A DNA stretch of 64,000 nt from Marsupella aquatica (Eukaryota > Plantae > Marchantiophyta). Made by a program: the position numbers and the translations under genes. Under the pieces are notes generated by a model. The model saw nothing but the letters and a program-made list of their open reading frames with translations, did not search any database and was not told the origin of the DNA. Shown here piece after piece: positions 1 to 63,700 of the stretch. Positions within the stretch are counted from its first letter, which is position 1; the number at the start of each line of letters is the position of its first letter. The stretch spans positions 2,049,223 to 2,113,222 of the forward strand of contig OZ316892.1 in assembly GCA_973895155.1 (NCBI GenBank). Reading direction: 5' to 3'.

Positions 1-3000
1 AATAATGACTCTCTGCCTGATTGTTGCTCCTGGATGCATAGGCAATGACGTACTCTTTACCTTCCTCATCATGCTGGCCTAGAATGGCACCAATCCCAAG
101 GGCACTCCAATCTGTGTGTAGCACAAAGACCTTGTTGAAATCAGGTCTTCTCAGCACTGGGTATTCTGAGAGCTTCTCCTTCAAAGTGGCAAATGTTGCC
201 TCAACATCTGTACTCCATGTCCAAGTCACATTCTTTTTCAACAAAGCATACAATGGGTGTGCAATGGTACTGAAATCTTTGATGTAGATCCGGTAGTAAT
301 TGCACAACCCAATAAAACTCCTCAAAGTGTGAACATCGGTAGGAGTGGGCATTTCCAAGATGGATACCACCTTGGCCCAGTGAGCCATGGTTCCATTTGG
401 AAGAATGCGATGCCCAAGATATACGACTGATCTGACAGCAAATTCACACTTCTTGGGGTGTATGTTTAGGTTCACCTTCTTAAGCCTTATGAATAGCTCC
501 TCAAGGTCAAGTAGATGCTGGTCAAATCCTTTGTTGTGGACCAACACATCATCAATGTAGCATTTCAGAAACTCAGCACCTTGAAGAACCTGGTCCATGA
601 CTCTTTGAAAGAATATGGGCGCATTCTTCAAGCCAAATGGCATCACCAACCACTCCCATAGTTGGTTACTACCATGGAAAGTTGTTTTCTTGCGGTCCTT
701 TGCAAGCAGCAAAATCTGGTTGAAGCCTTGCCTTAGATCCACAAGAGTGAAGATGTCTGAGTCTCCAATGCTGTCAAATAGCTCCTCTGGCCGCGGCATG
801 GGGTACCTGTCCTGGGGTGTGACCAGGTTCAATGGCTTGTAGTCCCCACACATGCGCTTCTCTGTCCACAATCCACTGGAATCCTTCTTTGCTGGCATCA
901 CTGTAGCTGCCGCAAAATCTGATGTAGATGGCTGAATAAGACCAGCTTCATAAAGCTCTTGGCACCTCTCATCCACCAGCTGCCACTCATGCTTACTCAA
1001 ACGGTGTCTCCGCCTAAAGATAGGTGTTTCATCAGCCAACTCAATGGAGAACTGCATAGTCTTGCACTTACCCAAGTCCTTCATAGAGAAAGCAAACACA
1101 TTCTCATGCTTGAGGAGCAAATTCAGCAGCTGGTCCCCGAGCTGGTCCTTCTGTCTTTTACTCAGGTGGTTGCCCATGATAAATGTGTAGTTGGCAACAC
1201 TAGGAATAGGACCTGATGTACTCATGCTTGAAGAGCCAGAAGTGCCAGCCTCTCCACTGTCCAAGCTGCTAGCATGCTGCTGATAAGGTGATGAGGCCTC
1301 TCCAAGGCCTGCTGTATCTGTTGCTCTGGTCTGATCCACACCATGAAACTCAGAAATAATGTCAGCCACATTACAAGGGACCTCCTCCCCCCCAACACTT
1401 GGACTGAAGCGGTGAGTGTTGAATAGAGGTAAGTGCACCTGGTCTGGATGCCATGTAGCAGCACTGTGGAGGGGTAGGGCTGGAGCTCCTAATGCTGGAG
1501 GAATGTACATCTGAAAAAGGATGCAAGTGACCAGAAGCCAAGTGAGAGCATTGAGATCCATTACCCTGCCAAGTAAAGCATTCCTGGCCAGCCTGGTGAT
1601 TTTGGTGTGACCTGTAGTACCGGGTTGGAAGCCCATAGCCCGTTCTCTCTCCTCAGGACTAGGTTCATCCCATGTACCGGTAGAATGTCGATAAACCAGC
1701 CCAGGACCATCACCCTGAAAAGCATGTGCACCTGGAAAGGACACAAATGTAGGCCAAGCAGCACGGGGTTGTCCAATGGTATTAGCTGGATACCAAGGTG
1801 CTGGCTCTTGCCGTGTAACTGGTTGGCAAGAACTGTCAGGATCCAAAATCTGGTCCACTGTAAGGTTAGTGTCCCTAGATGTGTGGTGAAGAGCCATCTC
1901 CAGCAAGGAAGGTGGTGCAAGGTTAGTCCAAAAGTTACGAAGACGATGTGCATAAGAACCACAGTGCACTGCATCAATGAGAAGGGGTGGTCCCAAGTAG
2001 TGCTGGACCACACTAAAATCCTCTTTGACCTGTGGACGCTGGTCAAACTGAGATGGAATATTATCAATGATATAACCAACAGTAGGATAAAGGGATTGAG
2101 CCCAGGTGAGAATCTGAACCAATGTTGTGAAAAGGCCAGAACGAGAATCATGCAGTCCAGCACCGTGACCAGCAGCTGAAAACCCTTGGCATTCCCAACC
2201 AGCTATGATCAAATCAAGGGAGCCAAGAAGGGTTAAGTGCCGGTGCTGGACAAGCTGGATATCTGGAGGAAAGAAAGAAAATGCAGACTTCCATGCACTG
2301 TGTGGAAACTGTTGAGGAAATTGCTCTGAAAATTCCAGCAAACGGGATTCAGCCACTTGCCTTGCACCTGGATCAATATCCACATAGATGTACTGCTTCA
2401 CCGCCATGCCAGACTGTAGGAGAGCTTCCAGGCCTGTAGAAATGCCACCAAAAAGCTCAAGCAATGTAAGGCCATCTGAAGGAGGAGTCCATGTAATTGG
2501 TGCGCTCAAGATTGGGGCTATTGGTTGTCCATGATGCTGCCCAAGGTCCTCAAATTTGTGCAATGCAGCCACCAAAGGTCCATGGGCTGCTTGGAGCCGT
2601 TGTACCACCTCTGGTTGATGATCCACGTTGCTAGAAAGTGCTGCTATACGTGCAGCAGCATGTGCAGTAGCCACCTCATCATCATCCTCCTCAATCCAAT
2701 CCTGCAATGGGTGGTTAACATAGGTAGCTGTGTGCACTGCTTTCAACACACAGTGGTGAGCCATAGGGGTATGGGCACCATGCAAATCCAGTGGAATGTA
2801 TCCCAAGTGTGAGCCATCCGTATGCCAATCAACTCTGTAGTATGCATGCTCATGCCAGTTGTCAATGGTAAAACCTGGTGGGAACAAAGCCTCCTGGCCA
2901 ATGAGCACATCATACGTAGTGGCATTGGTAACCAAACATCTGACTGGGAAATGCAGTTCCTGATCTGTACCTCCATTAAAAGTGAGAGTGAGTAAAGTAG

Positions 3001-3856
3001 AACTCTCACCCAGCACATCCTCCACAGTGCCACTAGCAGTCCGAATATGCCACCTGGATGGCTGTAAATGATCAGTCAGCAGTCCCATCTTCTTGGCAAA
3101 CTGAATGCCCAAGATTACTGGTTGAGCACCTGTGTCTAGCATGACCACCTGAGGAGTGTGACCCTCCAACTTGACTGTTGAATTCCTGTTGTCAACAATG
3201 GCAATGGTGGTGGAAACTAAAGTCCTGTCACTAGGCACCACTTTTGGCAAATGATGAGGTACCTTGTGAAGGGAGTTAGTGTCCATGGTCTTCCCACTCA
3301 ACAACATAGCCAGGAAAGATGGAGCAGCATGACCAGAATCAAGTGTAGCTCTGGTCACACAATCTGCAGCAATACTGTCATCTCTACCACTAGAAATCGG
3401 TACTGGGATAGCCAAACCAGTGGAAGCATGCAATGGAGAAGAAGAAGGTCCAGTACTAACATGAGATTGGACCTCCAAAACCGGTGTCACAGGGGCTGAT
3501 GAAGAATGCAGTGAGCCCTCTAGCGCTCTGATGACAGCTCTAGCATCCAACTGTAAATCATGGCAATTGAAAAGTGGAGTGGTAAGAATCCTTTGTGCCA
3601 TACCGGAGGTGAAATGCTCAAGCAGCTCAGGAAAAACAACTCCCTGTGAAATGTCAGTAGCACCTGGTGGTGGAATGGATGTAGCTGCAGCTCCCTCCCC
3701 CCTCGCCAACAAGGTGTGCTCTTCAGCAAGTGTGAGTGGCTGAAAAGATTGGGGCATGACAGCCCGAGCTCCCCGGGCTGTAGTCATAGGACCAGCAGCA
3801 AGACCATCAGCGTGTACAATGCGGCGTGTGGGAGCAATACGGGAGGCAGCACTGGC
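1..3856 (-). CDS. pol polyprotein: aspartic protease - DNMT3-like C5-MTase - reverse transcriptase - RNase H (open, truncated by window)
   Basis: Manual translation found no stop from 3856 to base 2. VMLDTGAQPVILG (D at 3134-3136); RMCGDYKPLN, DLRQGFNQI, MPFGLKNAP, CYIDDVLVH (YIDD 548-559), YLGH, LRSFIGLCNYYR; FVLHTDWSALGIGAIL and VIAYASR near 1-130. Confidence 0.93.
1520..2480 (-). other. DNMT3-like C5-cytosine DNA methyltransferase catalytic domain inside pol
   Basis: Ordered motifs: I LLELFGGISTG (~2435-2465); II YVDID; IV DLIIAGWECQGFS (Cys 2189-2191); V GLHDSRSGLF; VI YIIDNIP (~2055-2075); VIII AHRLRNFWTN (1922-1951; DNMT3 AHRARYFWGN); IX ERERAMGFQPG; X RLARNALLGRVM (DNMT3 RLARQRLLGRSW). 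Confidence 0.9.
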
Positions 3857-4303
3857 CTACTGGTAAGCAAAATAGGAAGGACAGAATGAATCTGAAAATT
3901 CTGCTGTAAGGCCAGGCTGTGTAGCACAGGACAGCACCCACTCACCCATATGAGCATCAAATGGCAAGCCATAGAAAGAGCGGGGTAGGGGTGCTGAACT
4001 GTCAGTGGTGCCTGGGCGAGGGATGGGTTGCACGTGACCAGCCGGTTGAGAAGGACCAACAGAGGCAGTGGACTTGCCTTTGATGTTGGCAAGTTGGGCA
4101 CGTAATGACTCAGCCTCATGAGTCAGAGACTGGAGTTGAGTTGCCTGTGCGTTGTGAGCCTCCTTCTGAGCGGGTTGCTTCTGTTGCTGCTTGGGCAATT
4201 TGTTAGCACTGGATGCTTTGCCACTGGAAGGAGGAGCAACTGATGCAGTAGGAGCCCTCCTAGCTGGTGGGGGAGTGGAAACAGGAGCAGGATGAGTGGC
4301 CTG

Positions 4304-5587
4304 CTATCGTAGCTGCTTCCTCTCGGGGAATTTGGCAAAACAAACTGCCTCCAAGTGGCCCACTTTCCCGCAAAAATCACAAGATAGGTCCTCAGCAACA
4401 ATATCACATTCATTAGCCTTGTGATTAGGGTTACCACAGTAGTTGCAAGATGGCAGCATGAAAGTAGCATGTGCGGGCTTGGTCTTGAAACCATACTGTG
4501 GCACACGGGAAGGAGTGGCCAGTGTAGGAGCAGCAGCCTGGTACCTGGATCGCGGTGGACGCGCAATACTGGCCTCATAATGTGCATGGGCCAACTCAAG
4601 TTTCTCAGTAGTGTCATAGACATTGAGCAGGGTGTAGCTGTCTCCAAACTCTGAGAATACTTGCTGCAACACTTGCGAATGGAGAGCTGGGGTGCCCTCC
4701 AACGCGCGAAGATAGCGATGAGCAGCTTCCAGGTCAGTGATGCTCTGGGTGTCTTCCTTCAGCTTGAGAAGCCGGCGATACAACATCTTCAATGTTTCAT
4801 CGCGCTGCCTCACAAATGTGGCCAACTGCATGATTTTGTCAGCACTCTTGATTGGGAATTCCAATTCAAGAACCTGGAAAAACTCAGCCACTGGATTAGC
4901 AAAGGCAGGGGAATCAATGGTGGGAGAAATGCCTGATGTAGCCTGTGCCAAGACAGTGGGAGTAACTGGTGCAGTGGTGGGAACTGGAGTAGGAGGGGAA
5001 GTGGCAGGAGTAGCAGCATGGGCTGCAATGGCATTCTGTAATGCCAGTTGTGAGGCAGCCACAATTGCAGTGGCATAGGCAGGGTTAGGCAATTGTGTGA
5101 CAGCAAGCAGCCGTTGAGAATGCTGCTCATACACATCCAAAGCCTCGTGGTGCACATACCTGGCTAGCTGCTTAAATGCAAAAGCATTTGTGAAATTGCT
5201 GCCATACTTCAACTCCAATTCGTAAACGACAGTGTAGAAAGTGGATTTGAACTCGCGCAAAGAGACAGTGCCTGGCCGCCCGCTGAAGCGCTCAATGCGG
5301 CTAGATGAGTGACTGGCATCCATGCTGTATGTCGGTGAAGCTGGAACAATCACTGATGTAGAAGGAGAAAAAGGCAAAGAAGTGATAGCAGGCTTCGGGG
5401 TAGAGGTGAAGCGACCGCCAAATGTAGCAGAAGGGTTGCGTGGTGTGGGTGCTGCTGCTGTCTGCTGACGTCGTCGAAATTGCCAAGACTCCAATGAAAT
5501 TGGCACCAACGGTCGTGGATCACTCCGTAAGTGGTACCGGGGTGTCGGTGGCGATGAGCTGCTACCTCCCGGCTCGTCGGCTGACAT
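4304..5587 (-). CDS. retrotransposon gag (capsid-like region plus two CCHC zinc knuckles)
   Basis: 427-aa ORF with IERFSG, RQRDETLKMLYRRL, CNYCGNPNHKANEC and CDFCGKVGHLEAVC; same frame as the downstream pol. Confidence 0.88.
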   Translation of the reverse strand: MSADEPGGSSSSPPTPRYHLRSDPRPLVPISLESWQFRRRQQTAAAPTPRNPSATFGGRFTSTPKPAITSLPFSPSTSVIVPASPTYSMDASHSSSRIERFSGRPGTVSLREFKSTFYTVVYELELKYGSNFTNAFAFKQLARYVHHEALDVYEQHSQRLLAVTQLPNPAYATAIVAASQLALQNAIAAHAATPATSPPTPVPTTAPVTPTVLAQATSGISPTIDSPAFANPVAEFFQVLELEFPIKSADKIMQLATFVRQRDETLKMLYRRLLKLKEDTQSITDLEAAHRYLRALEGTPALHSQVLQQVFSEFGDSYTLLNVYDTTEKLELAHAHYEASIARPPRSRYQAAAPTLATPSRVPQYGFKTKPAHATFMLPSCNYCGNPNHKANECDIVAEDLSCDFCGKVGHLEAVCFAKFPERKQLR

Positions 5588-5611
5588 GCTGCATGCTCAC
5601 CCGGGGTGCCA

Positions 5612-7284
5612 ATGGGAAAGAAATTGACAAGAAAAAGGAATGGCAGCCCCAAGGCTAGGAAATAAAACCCACAAAGGAGACAAACGGTACAAGGCAACAA
5701 TGTGTCAAATGTGTAAACACACAGAAAAACCGTCACAAAGAAAAATTGTCGGCAAAGGAAAACCCCTTAAAAACTCGGGAAAGGCTTAATGTTGGCGGCA
5801 ATAAAGAAATCCGGGAAAAGAAACTAGAAGTGGCCCCCCCCTTAAGTGTATACATCGGGCCCCTATGTGGACCCAAAAACTGGCAGGAAAAGGGAAACCA
5901 AAGAGGCGCGCGTCAGCGGGAAAAGAAAACCGGGCCAAGTGGGACACAGAATCTGAAGTGTATACACATCAGCCCGATGTGGACCCGAGAGATGGAAACA
6001 GGTCGATCGTCGCGCGGCGAAAAAGCGAGACAAGTCGAAAAAGGCGAAAAGAAAACGGGAAGAGTGAGGCGAAGAAAAAGAAATGAGCCCTGTGCATAGG
6101 GCTTCGCACCCCCCTCCTTATGAGCTCCTGAAGAGGTGGGGCTACGAGCTCCCCCTCCCCTCTTAAATGTGCTGGGTGCCTTGTGCCTGGCAGGACTCCT
6201 GAGGGGAGTCGACGTGAACTCCCCCTCTCCCCTTTAATTCTTCATAGGGCCTCGTGCCCACTCCTTGCGCTCTGCCTTGGCTCTGTCTCCCCCCTCTTTA
6301 ATGCTGCTATCTGGGCTTCGTGCCCTGCAGGAGGACTCCCGAGAAGGGAGTCGTATGTACTCCCCCTCCCCCTTTAATGCAGCATAGGGGCTCGTGCCCT
6401 ATCCTGGCACACTCGCTCCCCTCCCCTCCTTAAATTGCAGCATAGGGCCTCGTGCCCTCTCCTTGCACACTCGCTCCCCCTTCATCTAAGTGCTTTAATT
6501 GCTGATAACGGTAAGGAAAAGAAGGAAGGAAAATGGGCGAGGCAAAGGCAAAAATGGCAGCAAAGGGCGAAGAGAAAACGGGCGCGAGGCCCTATGTAGT
6601 CGAGAAGCAGTCGCACGGTGGCCGAGGCAATGCGGAAGTTGTCGCGCGGCAGCCGATGCAGGATGGCAGCCGTGGCCGGGAAATGGAAAACCCTGAAAGC
6701 AAAGTGGAAGGAAAAAAGTGAGGGGGGGGGCCTGTTTGACTTAAGTGTATATACTTAAGTGTATACACAAAAGCCATAACTTCCACCCCATCGCTCAACG
6801 TTTTTCCATAGAAATTGCACCGGCATCAGCGGAAAAGCGTCAACTGTCTCGAGCAATTGAGAAGCACAGCGTCTTCGATCTTCTTCCCTTCACCGCTAAC
6901 CCGGCGACAGAGTTCTTCTTGAATAAAAGGCGTGATAGAAACAAACGTGCTGAAATCGAATTGAAAACCGGCGAGATGCCAAGATCGGCCGGGAGCATCT
7001 AACGAATCACTGTGTGAATTCCGTGTACGGAACCGACGAGCAGCCTCTGAAAAACTCTGTCTCACAGCGATTCAAGAAGAACTGAAGAACGGCAAAGAAA
7101 AACATGCCCTAAGTAGGACCGGGTCCAGGCGTCACACTAACAAACCCCTTTTGCTTCAAGAACAGCCCAGACTCGCTACAAGAACATGACACTAACTCAA
7201 GTAGTACACTAGCCCTAACCATACCTAGCGGGCATGCGAGGGACATGCCGATGTGCACAAGCGGCACTGTCCCTCGGCATGACA
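5612..7284 (-). repeat. putative 5' LTR / 5' leader of the retroelement with internal repeats
   Basis: Non-coding, CG-rich region upstream of gag. Begins TGTCA on the minus strand at 7284; PBS-like TGGCACCCCGGGTGAG at ~5595-5610; imperfect repeats at 6090-6480. The second LTR is not in the window, so it cannot be confirmed. Confidence 0.5.
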
Positions 7285-8239
7285 AACATTTAGTCTCAAC
7301 ATTTAGTCTAGTTCTTGCAAGCTAACAATATTTTCTCGTTATGATTGACTCCTTGGTGTCTTTGTTTCACACGTAAACAATTTTGGAAAGTTGTAAGGGA
7401 AAACAGCCAAGAGTAAAAGATCCTTGGTTCCTTCCATACTTGACAAATTTGGGGTCTAGATGTGAGAAGACAACATCCATGATGTGTTTGTTCCACACTT
7501 GGACAATGTTTAAATGTTGCAGTAGGGACCAATGGCCAAAAGTAGAGGATTCATTCCATACTTAAACAAAAGAACAAAGAGAAATGTCAAAACATCATGC
7601 ATACCCTGTGCATAGGTTTTGTGAAAGCAACCCAAAGATACAATTCAAACATGAAGACATGAACCATATTGTCTTCACGTAGGAACTTGCTTCGCGCGAC
7701 AGCTGCCATTACTCGGGCCATTACTCCACAATTCCCCCAACAGTGTAGTTTGTCATTGAGCATGGTTTGACTCTAAACTTTTATTACATTAGCTCTTATT
7801 GGTGATAATATCAAGCCAAAACTCCTTATAGGAACTTTACAAGAACATCTGACACAAAAGTGTGAGAGGGGCCTAGTTTTGTAACCAAAGTTTCATAACT
7901 AAGGGCCTATACCCTAAATGCCATCATCCATAATTTCCAAGCTTTGAAACTCCCTAATTTTGACTTGAGAGCAAATGACATTGCCCTGCTCTGTTGCTGT
8001 AATACATTATACAAAGGGCAGGTTGAGTTCAATAGGAGTGTGAAAAAAAATCATACTCCCTACTGCATATTTGTACACCCCTCAATCCCTGGAAAAACTG
8101 TAATTTTATTGGCTCAAACATTCTGACACATATCTATACTCATTCTCGGCCCCATGGAACATAGCCCTTAGTATATATTACACTCCCCAAAAAAGAGGCG
8201 CTCAACTGGGATATAATATAGCATGTTCATCCTGGAACA

Positions 8240-9022
8240 TGGTTCATTTTTATAAAGTGATGTGTAGATGATCTAATTTTCTTGTGACTAGTGCATATTT
8301 GTTAAGATTGAGTGGGATAAAATACAAGTCAGATAATGACTAGGAAAAGTATTAAGTGGTATGTAAATGATCTACACTGTTCACCGTAATTAGTGTTATG
8401 CAAGAATTAGTGTTAGTGCAAAATTAGTGTTAGTAACACTAATTTTGGTAAAAATGATTTTTTGAGTCCAAGTAGCACTAATTTTTGTCGGTTTTCAAAA
8501 TGAATTTTTTTCAGTTTAGTTTAAATTGCTTGTAAAAAACGGATGATCTCTAGTCCAAAGTAACACTAATTGTTGTGGATTTTTTTAAATAGTTTTTTTC
8601 TTTGTATTTTGCCACTTTTAAGACCATAGTAACACTAATTCATGTGCGCAAAAATAGTGTTAGCACAAAATTAGTGTGACTAACACTAATTCGCGAGTAG
8701 ACCCTGAAAATGGGCGCTCTCGAATTAGTGTTACTCACACTAATTACGGGACAGTGTATATTTATGGTGGCTAGGGCAAGTGTATATTTATGGTGGCTAG
8801 AGCAATTTTGTTAAGATTTGAGTGGGATAAAATACAAGTCAGGTAATGATTAGGAAGAGTACAACTTTATGATACTAGGATGAACGTGTTTCATTTTTTT
8901 ACAAAGTGATATGTACATTATCTAATTTTTGTTACTAGTGCATATTTGTTAAGATTGAGTAGGATTAAATACAAACCAGATATTGACTAGGAAAAGTATT
9001 AAGTTGATATGTAAATGATCTA
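8240..9022 (+). repeat. direct duplication of a ~135-bp AT-rich unit, first copy followed by a MITE insertion
   Basis: actagtgcatatttgttaagattgagt...gactaggaaaagtattaagt...atgtaaatgatcta occurs at ~8240-8374 and ~8890-9022. Confidence 0.75.
8375..8756. mobile_element. MITE with TA target duplication and internal AATTAGTGTTA arrays
   Basis: Imperfect TIRs CACTGTtcaCCGTAATTAGTGT / ACACTAATTACGGgACAGTG, flanked by TA on both sides; the corresponding empty site is visible at ~9010-9040. Confidence 0.8.
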
Positions 9023-11534
9023 TTTTTTTGGTGGCTAGTGCAAATTCATGATAAAATTCAAGTCACGTAATGATTAGGAAAAGTACAAGTTTGATATGGA
9101 AAAGTTGTGCACAGTGCACATGAGATACAAGAGTATAAGTACGACAGATGTAAAGGAATGTAATAATGACAAGGAAAAGTTTAAAGTCTGTAATATTGGG
9201 TGGTGCACATAATGTTACTTATGAACTTACCTGTACTTAATAACACTCAAATCAATTAAAATCATAAATTTAAGAAACAAAACCGTGAGAAGAACTTAAA
9301 GATCACTAGGTGTGCGCTTTGTTTAGAGTAATTTCCTTTCTCACTCATGAGAAGAAATGCCAAAAATTCCATGAGAGTTGCTACAAGGTTGGATGCACAT
9401 TATTGGAATCTAGAATGATCAGGAAAGGAGAGCATTAGGATAGCAAGGGTTAAAAGTATTTAGAGAAGTGCCAATATAGATTGAAAATCTGAACGATACT
9501 AAGGATGCACCTTGTGAAGATCCATTGAACTACAATACACAGAAAAAAGTCTCAATAAAACTAAATGTTGAAGGTGTATTTGCCAGTAGCAGCATCAAAT
9601 CTAATCTCATATAGAGGGTTACTCCAACTTTAAGCAATCTCCCTCAAATGGTAATAACAGGTTGTTAGGACTATTCTTCTAGATAAATGAGAAAAGAAAT
9701 ATTCTTCAAGGTACCTAAAGGAAAGAAATATTCTTCATGTTACCTATAAGTGTGAAGAATCCCCCAAAAGGGACAATAGTTTGTCTTGTAGGCAGTGTTC
9801 CCGTGCAAAAGAATTCCCATGTTTACCCATATCGCAAGGATGAATTTTTTAGTACTTTGAGTGACTTGGTACTTGTGCTTCAATGCTTATTCCTTTACAA
9901 AGTGTGGGCCCCACTTCTATCCCTACATGTCATTTTACTAGTAGTCAATTGTTTAACTTCTAAACTATTGTGAATCCCTTTCCAAAAATTGGTGGGACTT
10001 TCATGTTTTTGTCATAATGACTTAGTATAGCCACACATATAATTATGTCGTTCAAAACCATAAACTTAGGAGCTGTAGTTAAGAGGGGAGAAACCAGGAA
10101 GACCAAAAACTGCAGTAGTGAACTAAGGACAAACAAACTGAAGAGCCTAGCTGGTAGCTCGCTTGGTAGAACTCTGTGGTGAATTGTGGTTATTATTGTG
10201 GGACTCTTGGGCTTATTGTTTCTGGTTATTATTGTGGGACTCTTGGGCTTGCTTGGATTTCCCTTGTTTCCTGTACCTTTATTGGGTTTCTTGTATACAA
10301 GCATGTCTCCTGGTTGGGCACCTTTTGATTAATTTTCTGGCAGTGTGACATATTTATATATTTTTCCAACAGCCAATGTTCCCAAAATGCTGGCCCTGCA
10401 CTAGGGTCAACTACAATTGAAACTACAGTTGATGACACTTGCTTTGACGCCAAGCTCAATGACAACATGAATGTGCAGAATTGGTTTTGCCGGACATGTC
10501 ACAATGCAATTGTAAGTTTCACACTCTAAAATACATACATGTACCAGTGTTTTTTTTAGAGGCTAAAATTTGCAATGCAAGATCCACATCTCTACAAAGT
10601 CTTTGCCAATTTAATGCAAATATAGTGAGTAGATTTTCTGTTTTCAGTTAGACAGTTTTTGACCTAGCCACACACCTCATTAGCAAGAACCTGCAGACCC
10701 ATTAGCCAGATTCTAATGGCCATCCTCAAATCTAGGCACATATAGTTCCTGGCAGAGTGTATCTTAAAGTTAACCCTGGAAAATTTTTAAAAATCTTTAA
10801 ATAAGGTAAGATACACTCTGCCGTGAACTAAAAGTGCCCAATCAAGAGTCAGAGGGGATCCCAACTTCCAGAGGCACAATAAAGTGGAGAACATAAAGAA
10901 TAAAGGAGAAACACAATGGACAATTCCCAAGAGATCAAAGACTGAGCCAAGAAATGCCAAAAAGCCTGACACAGTGCAATACATACTAAGGTAATTTTCA
11001 AGGTGTTGTCTTGATTTTCAGGTTACCTTGTCTGAAGGCAAAGATCACACTCTCTGTTCCCGAGCTAATATAGACAACCTTGATTACGGAACCGTGTGGG
11101 AAGCTCCTTCCAAAATTTATAGCACCACGTTGAGCCACATCATCAGTTTCACTCACAAACACCTGTTCCCGAGCTAATGAGGGCTGTAGACAAACTTGAT
11201 TACGGAACCCCATGGTTTCTATAAGTGTGACGGGGTCCCCGTCTCAAAAAGTCACCATTAGGTGTTATTGGCAAGATGCATGTAAATAAATAAGCCAATA
11301 TACACAAGAGTTTTTCAATTTTTTTTAATTTCTTAAAAGTTAATCATCCCGGTGTGTGTTCATGTTGCTCTGGAGGGCCGGAGCTATTTGAACCCGGGAG
11401 GAACTATTTTTTTAATTGACCCTTTGCTCTCGTGGGTCTTGTCGTTGTGGGAGAAGAAAATTAGGCATCTTAAGGGGATACCACCAATTAATATTTGGAG
11501 ACCCCGACAGTTTTTCTTGGCCCCGGTGTAATAT

Positions 11535-13750: not shown

Positions 13751-16174
13751 AAGGTGTGGCACGCCCAGAACGGAGTTAGGATGAAGAAGTTATGAGCTCG
13801 GGCTTATTACGGATTCAAACATCCGTAACTTGGTCATCCGGAGTCCGTTTACGGATTCGTAATCAGGAGGAGCAGAGCTATCCAGGGCCCCCCTCGGGGG
13901 AGTAGTTCAAAATGGTTGAGGGTTTCAACCTTGAGTGGCCCCCTCACTTCCCCGTGACTACCAAGTACGGTTGGCATCGTCGAAGGCACCGACGGTCCCA
14001 TAGTTAGATTAGGGTGTTAGGAGCATGTGTGTGCCGCATGTTTTGTCGTGGAAGGACAATTAGCTTCAATGATCATGAAGGTACAAGAAATTCAAAATTA
14101 GTGAGAAGTAGGATGAGCAAAGCAGGATGAGCACTAATACCAAGTTGCAAATCCATTCTCTTCCAAGTTGCTCCATGATCTTGCTTGTCTTGTCCACATA
14201 ATCATAGGTGGTGAAGTAAGACTCATGCAACAAAGCATATGGATGACCCCACACATAACTTTGATACAACACTTACAAATATTTCCAAGGACTTGTCTCT
14301 AATTGAATTTAAGAATTTTTGTTTGTGCATATGCCCCGTGTACAGGGGAAAGTGCTGGGTGGGCAAGCTGAAGCCTTGAGTCACTATAAGTCAAGCACAA
14401 TCATTCAACGGGAGGAGTCCCCATCAGCAGCTAAGAGTTTAGCAGATTGAAAAAATGTACCAGCCCAGGGGAGCATTGGGCCAAAGTGCATTTGAAGGAT
14501 TTTTCTTTTTAGCTAGGGTCAGTGGCAGATCTCATGTTTCGTGAAGGAGAAGACGCTAAGAATATTCCTTATTGACTAACCCAAACTAACTTTTGACTGG
14601 GTCATTTGATCTTTGTATAGTTGGATGAACAAATGAGTGCCCCCTCTAGCTAGCTCAGCCTAGATTAACATCTTTGCTTAGTTCTACAACCTTAGAAATA
14701 TTATGGTGGAGCCCATGGTGGACTGCCAGGTTGGGTACTATAGTAATATGTGCCGAGATGAAGAATTTTTATGTCGTACTCAAATTTAAGGACATATATA
14801 TACCGCCTAATGGACCTCTTTTGGTTATTCTTTTGTACTCTGTTTGGCCCTTTTCTGTAAAATGGTTGTGTATATTTTTCAAAAAAGGAAGAGTCAAACT
14901 GTTTTTTTTTGGGACAAAAGTGAGTCCCTGACCCTCTAGTAGGCAATCTGTTGTGATAGTCATAAGCAAATTAATATGCTTTTTGAAGTGAAACATTGAG
15001 GGCAATCTTGCATGTGGTGGTCCTGAGAAAATTGGCCTTTGAAGTGTTCAGGTGACATCTTTGCACTGCGCAAGACTTTCCTGCCTCACCCCCTTGTCAA
15101 CCAATCCTCACGGCATTAGTAGCAGCCCTCCCCCCTGACCTTTGAATCTTACATAAAACAAAACAATCTTTACACATGTTGTCCTGCCTGCTCTTATGTG
15201 TGCAAATTTGAGGCAACACTGTTTACCGACATTTGCGGGCTGGTAAGAGCCACTTTTTTTAGAACCTTCCACATGCAAGACAACTCTGATACATATGCTA
15301 GGATCCTGTGGCAAAACCAGTGAGGGAGTAGTGTGGAGATTTACACAAATTATACAAAATATGAAAACCCAGATTTCCATCCGCAATCCATTTGCATAGG
15401 CTGTTCATGAGAGGTTTTCTCTTAAAGAGTTTTTTTGTAAAACAGGGCAAAGAAAGGTAAAGCAAATAAAGGAGAAGTTCAATGAATTTTCTAGTCAAGA
15501 TTGCTTCATTACTTCAGTTGATGCTCAAATGGACACAATGTTTTACCTTGGGATTGCAATTAGACCATACACTTGTTGACACCCGTAACAATGAGCACTC
15601 AAAAGAAAGGAAAAAAACATCTTAGTGACACTTGTCAGAGGACATTTTAGAATGGTCTCAGTCTGCAGATTGCACTGTAGTAGCCTGTCCAATCATATAT
15701 CAAACAAGATGGTCCGGGAGTTTCTCACTTCACCCTTGAATCAAAGAGTTATTGAGGGTAGTTTCAAAGGGGTCTAGGGCCCATTCTCTCCTTTAATTTG
15801 ATTCCCTTTAATTAAGATACATCTGGACCATGTAATGAGTGGAAACTACCCTAGTTTAGGGCCATCCCAGGGCCTATTCAGGTATTGTATATACTTATGT
15901 GTCCTACATGCCCCCACATGGCAAACAGGGAGCACTAGTAAATGCTGATGCGGAGTATTAATTTGTCCCAAATTTTAGACCACCTCCAGAGATGGCCTAA
16001 ATGTTTCCAAGTTTTGGCCCCTTCATTCAAGCGATTTGTATTTTCAAACTTTAATTAGCTCCTCGATTAGCTCCTTCTTTGAATGTGACTGCATTGCCTG
16101 AAGTTAGTTTAGAAGACTTTTGATCTGAAATGTTGTCTGAAATCTACCCTCCACTTTATTTAGGTGGATGTTTC

Positions 16175-16419
16175 CTCGGGGGGGTCACTATATGAAGGGT
16201 TATACATCACGTGCGACGGTTTGGGTCATTTATGACCCCCCTAAGTCACTTTCTAGAAAGTTATACGGCACCAATCATGTGATGACACATATGCATTTTG
16301 CAATTAAACAACCCTATATTTCCATAGAAGACTTAATAAGTCTTCCGCCAAAACCATTTAAATGGCCCTATACTTCGTCGCACATGATATGCCACTTCCA
16401 TGAAAGTGACCCCCCCGAG
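16175..16419. mobile_element. non-autonomous DNA transposon (hAT-like, 8-bp TSD)
   Basis: Perfect 15-bp TIR CTCGGGGGGGTCACT / AGTGACCCCCCCGAG; identical GATGTTTC at 16167-16174 and 16420-16427. Confidence 0.88.
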
Positions 16420-17213
16420 GATGTTTCATGGGAAATTTTATTTTTTACAACCCCTTGAGTTGCACTCCTAGATGCTGGTTGCTTGCCCTTGATATTTAGG
16501 TGATAAGAGAGTGACCTCCAAATTTTCTAAGTGTCAAGTTTCTGCTCACAAAGGGCTTTGGTGAACCCCACTTTGAGAGAGGGTTTGTGCAAAATCTGGT
16601 TGGCTTATGAAACTTGAACCTCACTTGTCGCAATGAAGACTGCTGGGCTACACTTAATATTAAGAAAACTTAGCTTGTTGGGATGATATATCAAGAAAAC
16701 TCTGCACAGTTTATGTGGATCCCCCATAGGTAGCAATAGAATATGTGAAGACATATACCCTCATGTCTTCACTTTCTATGCATGATGGGCAAATGGGCAG
16801 TGTCTATGGGCAACATTGAATGGCACGCGGGACCCAATTGTAGGCTGCAACGGGGGCTGCAATAAATGAGCTTATGATAGACTCTAGTCCCTAATTCCAA
16901 TTTGGTTTGGTGAGAAAAAGTCACAATAATTCACCACTTCTTGTTAAGGAAAGACTTGATGGGCCCTGGAGGGACACAAATCCATGATGAAGCCCATTCT
17001 TTGGAAAGGGACTTGCTGACCCCCCCCCCCCCCCCACCCCCCGCCGGCCCTGTCCCTCCCACCCTTGTACATCACCTGCCATGCCAGTCCCCAATGAAGT
17101 TGTCACTACACGCCCCTAACTCTCCAGCATGGTCATGGTGCTCTGTAGGCAACTAGGTCACTATAGAATGCTTTGTCCCTGGTCGGCTGCCTTCCTTCCC
17201 CTTGCGCACAACA

Positions 17214-17501
17214 TGAAGGAGGGGTGCCCAGACTTACAAAGGGTGCCCCTACTATTCTGAAGGGCACCCTAGCTTGTGAAGGGTCTTTTTTACTCTTCCC
17301 ATTGTGATTTCTCACTCTACCCTGTGTAAAATGAAATTTGTAGCACCTTTAGCATATCTTGCAACGTGAAGGAGGGGTGCCCAGACTTACAAAGAAGGGT
17401 GCCCCTACTATTCTGAAGGGCACCCTTGCGGAGGGTCTTTCTTACTCTTCCCTTCGTGATTTCTCACTCTACCCTACGTAAAATGAAATTTGTAGCACCT
17501 T
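17214..17501 (+). repeat. ~150-bp tandem duplication
   Basis: tgaaggaggggtgcccagacttacaaag...gggtgcccctactattctgaagggcaccc...gatttctcactctaccct...aaatgaaatttgtagcacctt occurs twice. Confidence 0.85.
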
Positions 17502-20500: not shown

Positions 20501-21428
20501 CAATGTCTCCTTCTGCATGTTTGCCAATGATCGGTTATGTAGCATTTAGAACCTAACCGGATACTTTCAAACCCCAGCGACTGTACTATGTCATCCGAAC
20601 TGTCCTGACTCTATGTAAGCGGATGAGATTAATATGTGCGTGGGGTTTGTCCGCACAGGGTACTTAGCCGCAGAAGACAACAATTCGAGGAGCAGGGAGG
20701 GTTTGGAAGTCTGTAATCAACTGAACGGGCCAGGGAAGCTGAAAGTCTAGCTAGACATGGTTAATGGTAACTGTCGATCAAGAGGGCAATGACCGAAGCT
20801 AGGGACGCTTATGGTTGTGGCAATGGATGCGCGCATCTTGTATGCACTATAAGGATTATGGGGCGGTACATGGAGAAATTGATCATCGTCGTAATCTGCC
20901 AGCCGGTGACTAGCTAACTATATCTATCCAGGGCCTGGCCAAACCGCTGTTGATAGACTGGTGCCGGACAACTAACAGGAAATAGCTAGCTTGCGCTCTT
21001 AAAGGTCAGGAACATGCGTATGGCAGCACCTTGTCGTCGACCTTGTAGATCAAGTCTTCCAAAGTAGCTCAGGGCCAGGGTAGCTGTAACGAGTACAACA
21101 CTAGAATTTCACACCCACGGGAAGAGTTATCTAACATTTATTAGCAGACTGGTTAGTGGGCGGCACAGAATGAACTTGGAATTTCAGGTTGCAGCTCGGA
21201 CAGGAATGTACACGTTCAGGTGGATATTAGTATATCTGAGCAAGAAAGGGTGAAGTTGTTAATGAGGCTGACAAGCCGGAGGACAAGTAGAGTTTGACTT
21301 GGGTCCATCTCATGGAAAGCTAGTGAATTCAGGTTGGGGTTCTTTTAGTACTTAGCAATTGGAATACCAGAGAAGACAAGTAGAAAGGCCTCGAGGTCAG
21401 GTAACTGACAGGCACTCGTGTTGGTCCA

Positions 21429-31665: not shown

Positions 31666-34752
<3,087 letters not shown>

Positions 34753-57110: not shown

Positions 57111-60100
57111 CTATGCACTGAAACCTTCTGTCAGAGGCTGCCATGTTCCATGACCATAAGTGCTCCTTCTGCAGGCCTCCTCCGCAGCATGGCTCACTTT
57201 CTCAATTTCGGCACCAGCATTGCAAATATTGGCAAAGGCCCGCATATGCTTCATTCCATATTGAGTCAACTGTCCGCACCTGCTCTCAAATTTCCGCACC
57301 TGGAGGACAAAACCAGAGTTAATTACAGGTCGTTGTAAATCTCAGGTGTCTTTTAAAGACAATTATCGATTCCAAGCAAGTTATTCACCAGAATGATGTG
57401 AACGAACTCTGCTAGTAGGATCTACTGACTTCTAACATGGCAAGATATTCCACAGCTACGTCCAAAAGCGGTAAAAACGACAACAACTTGTGATGAGTAG
57501 AACAATCGATTCTGGGACAAAACCGTACCACTTGCTTCATGCAGTCCCAGTCGTCTACCAGAGGATGTCCACTGGGAACAACATAGTCCAGTACTAATGA
57601 ACTCTCAACTCCAAAAAGCAACTCGCCCATCAGTTGCACACTTGTGTCGAGATGCAGGCGGTGAGATATGGTATCCATCAATTTCTTCCCAGCCTCCAGC
57701 TTGCGGGTCGATCCTTCAGCAGCATTGCTGAACTGTACATGCCGATCGGTAAAAAGTCAAGGGCCGGTTGTTTTCACGGAAATAAAATTATTTGTCAAAT
57801 CTCGCAATCAAAAGCTCCTTTCAAGTCACTTGCAAAACTATCCCATGTGCTACCCTTCACCCCCTCATGTGAGCAGAGACTGATGGAGAAACTCTTCACA
57901 TCAAGACTCAAATTTACCCCTCACGGAAGCATTGACCCATCGAATTGGCGAGATCTGTCCATCGAAAGGACAAATTTAAACGGAAGCTATTGAGACAAAG
58001 CCCTCGCAGGTCAATTACCTTAGTCCACAAATGAACCATATCAGCGTCACGCTGGCTAATGCCAAGTCCTCCAGATTCAAGCTTATTCTCAGCCAGCCAG
58101 TCCGAAAACGCTGGAAATCTGATCTTTTCGTTCGCTGGATCGAAGCCAAGGTACAGAGAAAGCTGGTCTGTGTTTTGCTGCAGATCACCGTACTGCATGA
58201 CGTGTGATCCTGACCTGTATGTGTTGTGGTTCGAAGTTCTCGTCTTCACCTGATGGAGCAAGCCAAAACCGAATATCAGTACATAGTCGTGATGATCGTC
58301 CGATCAATATCATACACTTTGATCGGATCAAAATGGAAGCAACTCCAGTTTGAAGTAAGAAGCACGAAAGACTTTTGACATAGCTATCAGGAAGCCTGTC
58401 GTCCACTTCATCAGACGTACAAAACCCATGAATCACCCGGAGCACAATCGATCCCAAGTCACTCGTTCCAGAACCAGACACTGAAGATAGTTGTGCAGAA
58501 GCGCATGACAACATGGAAGAACATTTTCAGTCGGCTAAGAATTGGAGCCTGGAATTCCACATCCCAGGACAACGCAACAACAGCGAAAGATAGTTCGTGT
58601 TACACTTACGATGCCGTATTGATCTGCCAAAGTTTCCTGCTTCAGGTTCTGGATCTCAGAATCTTCCATCCAAGCGACACTGTAGAGATCACCAAGGCAG
58701 GTCTCAAACTCCGGCGGGGGAGGAGGGATCATTCCTGGGCAGTACGTTCCCCAGCTACTCTCGTCAGCGTTGGACGCGGTGGTTACGTAAACATTCCAGC
58801 CTTTCGGAAGAAGTCCTTCAAAGATGCTTCCGCTCTCGCATGCTTCCAAGTAGAAAACCAGCTTCGAGTACGCGTTAGCCTCGTGCTTCCTCCTAAGAAC
58901 GTCGATCAAATCCACCGCATACAAATTGGGTGTGGTAGGCATGCCTGCGATGAGAGCACAGAGTTTCAGCACGTATACAAGAGCATTCGGCAATAGGAAT
59001 TCTCCCTCAAACGGTAGCGGGTCAGACAATCTTCGATACTAGGATAAACTTGGCTCTGCTGAAAGCTAAATGTATATCAAAGACATCCCATGGCCGGAAT
59101 TAATATCTTAGCTAACATTACAGGCCAAAGATAAAGATGTTAGTAAACATTAGCTGGTAACATAATGGAGAGGAGGCTAAGACATTAGAAGTACTAACAA
59201 ATTCGCTCACACGAAAGATAAGGCATCCTACTACATCTCGAGGCTGGATTAGCAGTTCGGCTGAAACTGATAGGGAGGAGCTAACAACGTCCTGTCTGAC
59301 TTTGACGCCCACGGTCCATAGCAGGAACTCGAAGTACAGAGTGGCCACGTACCGAGAACACCTGGACCTCCGTGGTCAGTGTAATAGATGAAGATGTGGT
59401 CATCGGGACCACTGTCAACCACCTTCCCACTGCCGCCTTTGAGAGCAGCCTTATCCCCGAGGATGACAGCGAAGAGGTTACCGACAGTCACTTCTTTACC
59501 GGTGTAGTCCTACAACATACAATCCAACCAACGGCAAATTGTTAAGACAGTTTTGAGTAGTCTACCACGGGCATATGGAAATCAATGATCGCGACTAGAA
59601 ACGCCACATCATCCCCTGACCCCTCCCAAAGCAGGACAAGCATCAAGACAGTCCTACCCTCCCAGTGATGCATGTAAATCACATTGGCAAGCGATTGGGC
59701 AGAAGAGCCGGTCCTCACCTTGGGCACGCCTTCGTACAAATCGCTGCCGTGAGGAGAATTGATAACCTGCCCAGGACGCGGGTTCTCCGGGTTGTTCGCA
59801 ATGTCGTCATACATGAACACGATAATGTTCTCCTCCTTCACACCATTCCTCCTTAGAATTTGGTATGCATGACACACATCCGCCTGCCAAACCAAGCCGA
59901 CGTCAGAAAGACCCATAAGTAAAATCTATGCCGCCAATTCTGAAGAAAATAACACCGAACGAGTCCTACAGCCTGGCTGAATTGTGAAAGAACCAACCTA
60001 CGTCGATCTTTCTAGGACACCAGAGCTTATGCAACCTTTTCCCTCAGACCACAGAATAGTCAACCCCAACAACCCGCACAGGAAACGTTGCCTTCACAAG

Positions 60101-60703
60101 CTTTGAGCCACCACATACGGAGGACAGATAAAACAGAGCCAAGTCAAGGAGTAGAACCCACATCCTCAACGCGCCAGTCCTTCCATGCAAATTTCCTCAT
60201 GCTTCTTGACATACACCTAAAATCGTTCCCACTCTCTCCACGGAAGAATTGAATGCTACGACACGACTATGAACTGCGGAGGAAACGGTGTAGAGAAATC
60301 CACTGCACGGATATCGAGATGATAGACAAGACCGGAGGAGATTGTAGACAGGAAGCTGCCTAATCAAACTCGTTTCTTGACTAATAATTCGACTCCGTCT
60401 TTCCCACTGGTACACCAGGACGTTTTCAGCACCATTAGCCTCTTCACACAACCTGCACTAGACACTGGTAAGGAGTCTCTCCACAGTCCAACCAACCTGA
60501 TGGCGGTAGTTCCAGTATCCATTAGAGCCCGCAATGAGAACAGCCCAACGGGTCCCGGCGAACTCCACATCGTCAGCTACTGCCTGTTCAAGATCGGTTG
60601 GCATCTTAATCCTCCAATCATCGAGGCCAAGGCGCGCAGCTCCAGCCGAGGCAGCCAACGCCAGCAAAACACACAACACCGTGACGGTCCTCATCTCTAC
60701 CAT
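57111..60703 (-). CDS. VPE: vacuolar processing enzyme / legumain (peptidase C13, asparaginyl endopeptidase), multi-exon
   Basis: Signal peptide, [33 protein letters not shown], catalytic YYTDHGGPG and [54 protein letters not shown]; ends GFSA-TAG. Confidence 0.97.
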
Positions 60704-63700
60704 CACTACTCTCCACTCCGCCTTGCGAGCTCGGGCGCGCGTTACTGCTCCTTGGAGGCAAGGGTTTTAATTCTAGAAACAGGAACCCACCCAATGAATC
60801 TAACAATGCGAAGCAGGGCACTCACTGCACCGATATACCCGGCGATGCAAATCGCCCTCGCATTGACTGAACTCTCCTCTCTCGTTCTCGCTGTGTCCCT
60901 CTCTACCTGCTACCGTTCCTCTCTTCCACTTTGCGCTAAAAGGTCCTCCTCCGCTCATTTTAAAGCTCCTCGATGGAGTGCGAAACCCACTCTCCACTCC
61001 ACTGCGGACAAAATCTTCCATGCCTCCTCCCTCCACTCTCGCCCTCCCTTGCTGAGGGGGCGAATTACCGGGCGGCCGCTAGCTAGTAGACACAACAACC
61101 CAGAATGGACGCTTCCGAACATTGACATGAGCGTACCGTATGAATCAACGTAATAATACTACGTTCGAGCTGATCGTACAAGCAACGGCAGCGTACGCAA
61201 ACGAGAGCACCAACATACTGTAGGTTTTTCCAAGGTACTCGCCCACACTAATGGAAGAACGGGCGGGCCCAAGCCAATTTTTTAAGTGCGAATTTTAGCC
61301 AAATTCTCCCTCCCCAAAAAAATTTTAAATCACTTTTGGTTATTCGTTACATTTATCTGATACCATTAGCCACTCTTCCATCAAATCATGGACCCCATTA
61401 ACTAGAATCTAAAGGCCCTCCTTAAATCTAGGGATATGTGACAATCACAATTTAATTCAGTAAAATCTGACAGAGAATTTTTCTAGAATCTCCTCCCTTA
61501 GAGAAACAAACATTCGCCACACTAGCTAAAAATTAAAAAACCTTAAAAAATACACTGGTGGGCTCGCCATCCCCCTATGCCCCTATTCCCCTAGTCCCAC
61601 AACAAATTTGTAATAGGGTGTCTCAAGGGAATTCGAAGAAACAATGTTGGCCCTAAATTATCAGTTTTGGTCATCCTCAGGATTGTGCGGACATGTATTT
61701 TTTTTGTGTGGGTCACATTGGGAATTTATCTTTGACAGCAATGAGAGGCAGAAATGAGAGATTTGAGTCACTCTACCAGGGCATTTCAATTTAACTCCTT
61801 TTAGGAAGTTTTCTGCCACCAAAATATTTCCGGTTGGGTCACACGACCAGAAATCTGTGGTTCCCACAAAATATGATCATCATTAATTTGCGTGGTCGAT
61901 GCACTCTATAATTCACTCCACATGATATGCATCGCCCTTCAAGAATAGTTTTTGCCCATTCCAAAACTGTCAGCACCCATGACCCGCAGAAAACCCATCT
62001 CAACCCTAAAACTATCTAGGATAAAATTGCCCTCAATTTGGGTTTCCATCTAGGTCATGGACCTAAATTTATTAAAGTAGCTTACTGAAAAAGGTGGGGG
62101 GGGGGGACAGCAAACAGGCGAGACAGCCAAATTTAAATTTCGGGTTCTGCTAGGAATCAAGGATATTAAAAATATTTTCAAAGCAGGTTCCACTGGGAAG
62201 CAAATATATCAAAATCTCACTCGAGGAAGGAGGAGCCAGAGCGGGTCCCGCGAAAATCTTTCCACCAAGACCAGAGCTGTTCGCGCAGTGAACTAACCAA
62301 TTGAAAATCGCATCGAGGAAGGAAGGAAGAGCCTCGGAAGTGGAGGCCTCGAATCCAAGACAGCGGCAGGCGGACGGACATGATGGCCACTGTTGCTAAA
62401 TAGAAATGTGTGCGCTCCAGGTCTCGACACAGCGACGACGCAACGACGGAGTGGAGTAGGACCGGCGACTTTAGTGCGAGAGGGAGGGCTGAGCGATGGA
62501 GGACGCGACAGAGGGGATCGCGGTTGAGTGGTGACGCATCGGAGCCCTCCTTTTTTAATCGAATAACTCATCTTTTAATGTTTCTGGCCTTCAAGGATCG
62601 GAAGCTATCTGCCTCCGGAATCTAATAGGGAGTGTCAAAGTCGTATAGTTCACAGTCTTTGGTAATTCATGAATTGTGACTTGTATTATACTACTGTACT
62701 TTGGTAGCGAGATTCAGATGCGATGCACAAATCCAGATGAGGACGAAAGATATCAAGCACAAAAAGTTTCAAGCTTGGGAAAGATGTCAAGCAAACAGCT
62801 TTAACTATTTGGTCACTAAAATTATTCTAATTGACAATATTATCACATTCTTTTTTTATTTACAAAAATATAAGTTTCATATATGGATGACAAGTTCACC
62901 AAGTTAATTGGGGAACTATATATGGAACCATATTTGTAAATATAAATTAAATAATGGTAGAATTGTAAATTCAAACATCTTTAGTGACAATGTACTTAAA
63001 AGTTGATCAAGCAAACTGATGTTGAGTGGAAAAAATTGTCAAACTGATGTCCAACAACAAAGGTGTCAAAGGAGAAGATGTCTAAGGAAGAAAGCGTCAA
63101 GACAAAAAGATGCAGTGAGAAAAATATGGTAAGCAAAAAAGTTGATGATTGAAAAGAGCTCTTGAATGGAAGTGTTGTTGAGAGAAAGTGTAGTCTAGTG
63201 GAAATGTTTTACAGGAGAAGTGTTGCTGGTCAAAAGTTTCCTCGAGAAAAGTGTTGTAGTGTGGAAAGCAAAGGGAGTAGATCATAGTGGGATGAGTAAG
63301 GGAGGAGAACCTTTAGTGTGAGCTGCAAAGAGACTTATTGCATCCACATCACTGACGGTTGAAACATATGTTACAAATGAAAATAATAGCCAAAAGGTAA
63401 GGGATGAATTATGGACATATATTAAATGAGGACACAGAAGTGTTGGCATGATGGAAAGTAAGTCCTTGTGAAATGTGTAATTATGTTGTGAAAGTGTGTG
63501 AATATATGCAAAACTTTTGACATCACAAACAATGTGCTAACTCATGATATGCTCATTGCAAAAATTGTAGCTTTCCATAGAATCTGTGTTGTCAATGATG
63601 TAGAAGATGATAGACATCATGGTTTGGAATCAGGTGTGGTGGATGCAAGGTGCCAAAGTTCTCATTAGGGCATCTCAAAGCTTCAAACTTGTGGATGATA

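Follow-up and report, generated by a model that had tools for sequence, protein, structure and literature searches.

What does a transposon gain from a DNA methyltransferase (DNMT) of its own? This question, left open in the accessible text of PMC5890265, is raised again and becomes testable with a 64,000-nucleotide stretch of contig OZ316892.1 (the whole stretch analysed, hereafter the window), at whose left edge lies a Ty3/Gypsy retrotransposon with a DNMT3-type domain within its Pol frame. It extends the methyltransferase-carrying retrotransposons from algae to land plants, which have the full plant silencing system and include culturable hosts. Several questions follow. Where did the domain come from? 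Is it maintained by selection? How do the copies, with their split end repeats, arise? We favour, with a probability of roughly 0.55, the reading that the window holds a liverwort copy, now decayed, of an old Ty3/Gypsy family of streptophytes, the conserved domain of which probably methylates the element's own new complementary DNA (cDNA), and the copies of which would prime themselves and insert from circularised cDNA.

The methyltransferase domain and its copy in the window

A single open frame on the minus strand (2..3856, stop to stop, 1285 amino acids), still open at the left edge of the window, encodes protease, DNMT, reverse transcriptase (RT) and RNase H in this order. The Pfam matches are gag-asp protease (PF13975, amino acids 227-324, E 1.3e-6), DNA_methylase (532-584, E 1.2e-5, better than the curated cut-off), RVT_1 (PF00078, 998-1151, E 3e-26) and RNase H (1214-1285). 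The protease motif DTG lies at 3139-3125 and the RT motif YIDD at 559-548, and the best match of the RT among solved structures is Ty3 RT (E 7.4e-54). With protease, RT and RNase H here, integrase after RNase H in relatives and a Gypsy-type RT, the family belongs to Ty3/Gypsy (Metaviridae). The integrase, PHD finger and 3′ repeats of the window element would fall beyond the window edge. Its parts within the window are as follows, all on the minus strand.

6923..7284, minus: 5′ terminal repeat A1, the left end of the element; starts with TGTCATG at 7284, the start motif common to repeat A of related loci
7070..7083, minus: putative self-primer and predicted RNA 5′ end; 14-nucleotide perfect complement of 6911-6924
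6911..6924, minus: putative primer-binding site where A1 ends, unlike a tRNA site; complement of 7070-7083
5321..6910, minus: 5′ untranslated region with short tandem-like repeats (6222-6477), from a repeat scan and the layout of relatives
3857..5320, minus: gag with a zinc knuckle (4403-4450), in the same frame as pol; in-frame stops at 4304-4306 and 3857-3859
2885..3178, minus: aspartic protease (PF13975), LDTGA at 3125-3139
1520..2479, minus: DNMT3-like C5 cytosine methyltransferase domain, from Pfam, motifs, solved-structure matches and an AlphaFold2 model
404..865, minus: reverse transcriptase core (PF00078), YIDD at 548-559
2..217, minus: RNase H (Pfam), cut by the window edge

The motifs of the DNMT domain are linear and unpermuted: I (LELFGGI, 2461-2441), II (YVDID, 2386-2372), IV (WECQGFS, 2197-2177), VI (IIDNI, 2071-2057), VIII (HRLRNFW, 1948-1928), IX (ERERAMGF, 1651-1628) and X (LGRVMDL, 1573-1553). 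Motifs VIII-X are DNMT3-like, and compared by sequence with solved structures the domain matches DNMT3A best (E 7.8e-8), whereas plant DRM (4onq) reaches only E 0.45. An AlphaFold2 model of the domain (pLDDT 95) can be overlaid on DNMT3A/B over its whole length (Foldseek TMq 0.76), with Z 29.4, a root-mean-square deviation of 2.4 and 268 residues aligned, as compared with Z 25.9 for M.MpeI, 22.9 for M.HhaI and 19.1 for DNMT1 (VIA). The predicted DNMT3-type fold with unpermuted motifs I-X is confirmed by this model. The domain does not fit a plant host DNMT3 or DRM, as it has no DUF3444 match, no introns and linear motifs; according to the accessible text of PMC6453930, host DNMT3 is marked by a C-terminal DUF3444 and DRM by permuted motifs.

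The first-pass annotation had described an in-frame, stop-free methyltransferase between protease and RT, with motifs VIII-X resembling DNMT3 and not permuted as in DRM, and these statements are borne out by the frame, the profile match and the modelled fold. It had also found the motifs in canonical order, which is right for their linear course from I to X, but two of them are not canonical in their residues: motif IV reads E-C, not P-C, and motif VI has Asp, not Glu. The E-C is a family trait, Glu being found in 56/58 distinct loci (defined below). Among the best 150 of 525 profile-search representatives E-C occurs in 87 and P-C in 48, and such sequences suggest that E-C is tolerated. The catalytic Cys is present in 58/58 distinct loci and in all 36 rows of one DNMT alignment; the motif-VI Glu, catalytic in DNMT3A (accessible text of PMC10034213), is present in 50/58 and the Asn in 57/58, and the S-adenosylmethionine-binding FxG motif is also kept.

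Does the copy in the window still work? Its motif VI reads I-D-N, with Asp at 2063-2065 where most relatives have the catalytic Glu, and this residue is private to the copy: all contigs over 2063 in four related sequencing runs differ there. Two in-frame stops interrupt gag (4304-4306 and 3857-3859), and at both positions most contigs of the four runs carry another sequence; in P0123 and in the Calypogeia protein P0150, gag, protease and DNMT share one frame. With the gag stops and the Asp at motif VI, this copy is decayed and not intact, through defects of its own; it is likely inactive and thus unlikely to be the active epigenetic writer that had first been supposed. Among 21 hand-picked private C-to-T differences, 4 lie in CG, 7 in CHG and 10 in CHH contexts, and the differences in 2020-2240 comprise 7 synonymous and 11 non-synonymous ones; both are biased subsets that decide nothing. 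The observed/expected CpG ratio is 0.21-0.36 in the coding part against 0.53-0.67 in the rest of the window, and 0.97 in repeat A.

Relatives, descent and selection

How widely is this arrangement found? For the window DNMT, 161 relatives of about its own length and 21 longer ones were found, the close ones (53-78% identity) including Calypogeia fissa, Sphagnum compactum and S. magellanicum; the Calypogeia and Sphagnum matches are annotated only as unnamed or hypothetical proteins. Related loci were counted among the best 80 of 224 related stretches, where the label "moss-type" for metagenome loci means resemblance to Sphagnum proteins only. They are arranged as gag-aspartic protease (AP)-linker-DNMT-RT-RNase H-integrase-PHD with constant spacing, and the DNMT insert is kept in 80/80. 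In two related runs 8441 and 4759 contigs were aligned at 85%, which fits a multi-copy family, depth not being read as copy number. Copies lying nested or side by side were seen at L022:8853-9014 and 14971-16546 and at L055:499-5856. Viral contigs gave 33 pattern matches, with no relative among them.

A profile search at E 1e-30 gave 525 clusters. In the best 150 of these, from which the bryophyte-type group is absent, the DNMT lies after RT/RNase H in 76, before them in 2 and after the protease in 3 more, 69 being too short. The named members with the DNMT after RT/RNase H are chlorophytes (Haematococcus, Tetradesmus and Scenedesmus); among named organisms the protease-DNMT form is represented by Klebsormidium nitens and by two strains of Closterium. 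The chlorophyte-type group (P0128, P0129, P0133, P0309 and about 100 profile-search representatives), in which the DNMT stands between RNase H and integrase, followed by PHD, has no description in the literature searched; one member also has a Tudor-like match. In P0124 a chlorophyte-like DNMT lies between protease and RT, a hint that the domain has moved more than once. P0445 and P0450 are full-length gag-pol proteins of the protease-DNMT form (AP-DNMT-RT-RNase H-integrase) with no Pfam PHD match, and so the PHD reader may not be universal.

Where, then, did the domain come from? The window frame is collinear with K. nitens GAQ93235.1, a protein with gag, AP and DNMT in this order that we infer to be a KnitGypsy-Dnmt3 copy, over protease, linker and DNMT (29% identity, 582 amino acids, E 2e-60), and the AP-linker-DNMT order also occurs in two Closterium proteins. 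Because of the collinearity with the Klebsormidium protease-DNMT protein, the element was likely inherited from streptophyte algae, as the land-plant branch of KnitGypsy-Dnmt3, and not freshly captured. The window DNMT is 35-44% identical to algal retroelement domains, against about 22% to human DNMT3A. In a DNMT tree the window and the Calypogeia copies form one group (SH-aLRT 98), itself part of a bryophyte-type clade (99); the tree being unrooted, 21 mostly chlorophyte-type rows split from the AP-DNMT rows at a support of 87 only. The RT trees, which contain no named references, give no assignment of the element to a plant Gypsy clade. All these trees are quick searches with SH-aLRT only, the DNMT tree having no host DNMT3 outgroup and the RT trees no Klebsormidium RT. 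An Atlas search gave only generic C5-methylase clusters (phage, streptophyte) and was not used for origin.

Is the domain maintained? The ratio of non-synonymous to synonymous substitution rates (dN/dS) was calculated for 79 loci with >250 DNMT codons, reduced to 58 distinct loci at 98%. Between the window and these 58 loci the DNMT has a median of 0.116 and the protease one of 0.117, the linkers lie at 0.25-0.35, and RT and RNase H are near 0.06, at a dS close to saturation (35/47 RT pairs saturated); among the loci themselves it is 0.41 for the DNMT and 0.37 for RT. The DNMT domain is under purifying selection family-wide. The linker upstream of it is a conserved segment of 90 amino acids (dN/dS about 0.35).

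The first-pass annotation had described the linkers as low-complexity, which is too simple for this segment. The family is likely inherited from the described charophyte KnitGypsy-Dnmt3 lineage and not separately captured in land plants. The annotation had also reckoned with copies lacking the insert and with a dN/dS near 1, and neither is seen. Its view that the land-plant family is undescribed agrees with the literature searched, in which neither a DNMT-Gypsy of land plants nor a model of circle insertion for such an element was found; Repbase, subscription journals and supplements (for example that listing 823 transposon-chromatin fusions, 10.1101/2021.11.30.470311) lay outside the scope of the search and may contain records of this kind. 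In their accessible parts, a preprint cites "streptophytes (Gypsy-DNMT3)" as a distinct earlier case with no land plants named (bioRxiv 10.64898/2026.05.21.726589), and another article assigns Gypsy-Dnmt3 to "streptophytes", again without naming land plants (PMC12344493). Retroelement DNMT domains of this kind would inflate DNMT3 counts in bryophyte gene sets.

End repeats, putative self-primer and genomic surroundings

How do the copies begin and end? The window displays the TG end only, and the TG...CA termini and 4-bp target duplications come from relatives. A1 of the window aligns globally to related repeat A with a score of 126, against a maximum of 105 in 100 shuffles, and the summed contig depth of related runs goes up over 6943-7476. 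Self-comparison of long related loci revealed repeats laid out as A-coding-B-A-B, repeat A beginning with TGTCATG, repeat B finishing in CA and a G-run standing immediately before B1. Two identical full long terminal repeats (LTRs) around the coding region are not present in these loci, the layout being A-coding-B-A-B or A-coding-B, and such split-repeat elements escape LTR finders that require two identical LTRs. B is upstream in 0/28 visible 5′ ends (20 distinct flanks), and the 3′ ends read B in 28, BAB in 11, BA in 2 and BABB in 1. The B1-A2 joint consists of CA, exactly two nucleotides and TG (CA-NN-TG) in 14/14, and at the A2-B2 joint the primer-site end of A is followed directly by the purine-tract start of B, in small variants that resemble end-joining. 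A perfect 4-bp target duplication flanks 7/10 distinct insertions with both ends, and a 5-bp one none; the script counted 5/9, and L070 (mis-called by the script) and L079 were read from the alignments. As for imperfect cases, L041 matches at 3/4 positions, and L008 and L043 have none. L018 (BAB) and L030 (B) have flank and duplication in common, with 94% DNMT identity, and the single-B end of L030 therefore likely arose later from B-A-B by recombination or assembly collapse. At L057:14292-15234 and L059:5586-6524 an inverted A-B unit adjoins the 3′ B end of an element; it may be a full repeat on its own that was inserted, or left behind, the other way round.

No tRNA-type primer site was found by eye after A. 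A complement links a stretch inside A with the sequence directly after A1: in relatives it is perfect over 13-16 nucleotides, at the same place in 10/19 loci and about 32 nucleotides past a TATA. The window pair (7083-7070 / 6924-6911) measures 14 nucleotides, against a longest of 10 in 100 shuffles, shows two compensatory differences from the moss-type pair and gives a duplex of -15.4 kcal/mol. In 8 loci chosen for a perfect match the pair probability is 0.96-0.99. An end of A at 6960 was also tried; no complement lies there, and 6923 was taken instead. Three features are added here to what had first been noted: the putative self-primer, the PHD finger and the splitting of the end repeats. 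The anatomy of the split, self-priming ends most deserves to be followed up, in a family that is real and under-described and of which the window holds a dead copy.

The rest of the window, scanned for Pfam in 211 frames of at least 72 amino acids, contains host genes, three of which were recognised by their domains and are all intron-split.

57114..60766, minus: legumain (vacuolar processing enzyme) host gene, PF01650/PF20985 exons
27780-30275, minus: host gene with RCC1 repeats (Pfam)
33422-33888, plus: host gene with MT-A70 methyltransferase domain (Pfam)

The legumain exon at 58607-58945 is 93% identical to that of Calypogeia fissa, 78% to Sphagnum fallax, 76% to Physcomitrium and Riccia and 74% to Marchantia paleacea. 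From these identities, and because the DNMT groups with Calypogeia, the host is most likely a leafy liverwort, in line with the land-plant host that had been assumed at the outset. A glutamine-rich, intron-split host gene at 21405-24484 (plus strand), with no Pfam match in the scanned frames, is perhaps a bZIP-type regulator, judged by eye. Clusters of short tandem-like repeats with units of 40-150 nucleotides lie at 8279-9092, 17209-17510, 26209-26498, 54956-55125 and 56143-56331, and no tRNA genes were found in the window.

Proposed cycle, alternatives and known systems

An outline of the proposed cycle is as follows. The RNA would start inside A1 and finish inside A2, and its 5′ end would prime reverse transcription, as in Tf1. 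The plus strand would start before B, and the linear cDNA would be [B-NN-A]-internal-[B-NN-A]: because priming would occur after A and plus-strand synthesis start before B, the replicated LTR would be B-NN-A, with CA-NN-TG inside it. The cDNA ends would be joined into a circle, making the A2-B2 joint, whose composition is as expected from joined cDNA ends. The DDE integrase would open the circle at its left internal CA-NN-TG joint, producing A-coding-B-A-B and the 4-bp duplication, and the PHD finger would read chromatin and steer insertion. The opening at CA-NN-TG can be likened to the insertion of circle junctions by IS3-type bacterial transposons. For LTR elements circular cDNA is commonly regarded as a dead end; if the end anatomy is read rightly, the present retrotransposon would insert from just such a circle by means of a DDE integrase. 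Meanwhile the cDNA would be methylated, probably at CG, by the packaged DNMT, which the protease may release, as first supposed. Methylation of an element's own cDNA was proposed earlier (PMC5890265, accessible text), and we favour it because of the position of the domain in Pol, its conserved catalytic residues and the CG activity of the related SymbioDIRS-Dnmt3 domains, which methylate CG in yeast according to the same text. The window copy likely performs none of these steps any more. More tentatively, and with real doubt, the scheme may be extended to a green-plant-wide Gypsy lineage, still multiplying in liverworts and peat mosses, that self-primes, circularises and methylates its cDNA and has a PHD-guided DDE integrase open the buried CA-NN-TG joint, a route undescribed for LTR retrotransposons.

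Several observations weigh against this reading. The end layout of the window element, whose own 3′ half lies outside the window, is assumed from relatives with about 72% amino acid identity in the DNMT. Its primer duplex has a pair probability of 0.17, is not favoured in the minimum-energy fold (z -0.91), and no TATA is seen upstream of it in the window repeat. A stop-free DNMT is found in only 2/58 distinct loci, and the dN/dS of 0.41 among loci is mostly post-insertion decay, most loci being old decayed copies. Bryophyte members carry E-C in motif IV, though 48/150 distant representatives keep P-C, and no member of the Gypsy-Dnmt3 lineage has shown methylation activity. A CpG-poor coding part with a CpG-rich A fits, yet it does not tell self-methylation from host methylation, and host methylation explains the coding depletion equally well. 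If the circle has two equal joints, its right-hand joint should yield A-B-A-coding-B, which is seen in 0/28 5′ ends, and single-B 3′ ends are common (12 distinct, against 9 with B-A-B or BABB).

These last two counts speak for a route without a free circle. A-coding-B-A-B could arise in a linear way, if the template were switched an additional time or if two joints were cut in a head-to-tail dimer of the cDNA, and A-coding-B directly from linear cDNA cut at both joints, single B being the commonest 3′ form. This we regard as a plausible competitor, though not the preferred one: the A2-B2 joint, with its primer-site end, purine-tract start and end-joining-like variants, speaks for joined ends, and the L018/L030 pair makes it likely that at least one single-B copy derives from B-A-B. 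As to descent, it is very improbable that a liverwort element took up its host's own DNMT3 in a single event, or that the sequence is algal contamination. Bryophytes do have true DNMT3 genes (PMC6453930, accessible text), and the trees contain no host DNMT3; the domain is nevertheless closer to algal retroelement domains than to human DNMT3A and lacks DUF3444, its position in Pol is common to Klebsormidium and Closterium, and the contig holds intron-rich liverwort-like genes.

What the enzyme would act on is a separate matter. It may be active mainly on integrated DNA, be it host chromatin, sister copies or the element's own promoter, and so limit the element itself or manipulate the host; self-limitation is an option discussed in the accessible text of PMC5890265. 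The PHD finger at the end of Pol could tether it to chromatin. Ty3/Gypsy Pol is made in small amounts, and its RT is packaged in the particle. An enzyme embedded in Pol would likewise be scarce and packaged with RT, and a repeat A with a CpG ratio of 0.97 is unlike a long-methylated promoter, so that we consider this unlikely. Still harder to accept is a catalytically quiet domain, kept for structure or for binding DNA (methylated DNA, cDNA or the LTR joint, for example) and not as a writer. In its favour, the Klebsormidium KnitGypsy-Dnmt3 domain was inactive in yeast, a result called inconclusive there; against it, human DNMT3B was inactive in the same test too (PMC5890265, accessible text). 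Although the E-C of bryophyte motif IV and the two different Pol positions of the DNMT among relatives would suit such a module, the invariant Cys (36 rows; 58/58 loci) and the kept motif-VI Glu/Asn and FxG would not. Methylation of the element's own cDNA is the function that we prefer.

How does this family compare with known systems? Like KnitGypsy-Dnmt3 of K. nitens, it has an unpermuted Dnmt3-like domain in a Gypsy Pol under purifying selection and, according to the Fig. 4c legend, a DIRS-like A-coding-B-A-B repeat layout (PMC5890265). It differs in its land-plant hosts (a leafy liverwort, and also Calypogeia and Sphagnum) and in motif IV (W-E-C here, F-P-C there); the PHD finger, 4-bp duplications, CA-NN-TG joint and self-primer are added here and were not met in the accessible text of that report. 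The chlorophyte relatives (Haematococcus, Tetradesmus and Scenedesmus) resemble it in the DNMT (35-42%) and in integrase-PHD (34-45% to the related locus L003) and differ in having the DNMT between RNase H and integrase. SymbioDIRS-Dnmt3 and the DIRS-like PAT, Ngaro and TOC1 share with it Dnmt3 in Pol (SymbioDIRS-Dnmt3), A-coding-B-A-B repeats and circle insertion, which for the present family is our proposal. Split-direct-repeat elements of this kind (PAT, Ngaro, TOC1) use a tyrosine recombinase and insert from a circle without target duplication, whereas in the liverwort/moss family a DDE (rve) integrase goes together with TG...CA ends and 4-bp duplications. Tf1/Sushi and the plant Tcn1 chromoviruses, which occur in non-seed plants, prime with the RNA 5′ end instead of tRNA, as is proposed for the present family; as far as the accessible texts go, they have ordinary LTRs and a chromodomain (10.1101/2022.12.06.519325, PMC6317226, PMC2864245), in contrast to the split repeats and PHD-ended integrase found here, Pol of L003 stopping right after PHD with no chromodomain seen. 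EpiLTRs/DAM-LTRs are also LTR elements that combine methyltransferases with a chromatin reader, but according to the accessible part of their description their DNMT is DNMT4-related and is joined by DAM and a chromodomain (bioRxiv 10.64898/2026.05.21.726589), whereas the family described here pairs a DNMT3-type domain with a PHD finger.

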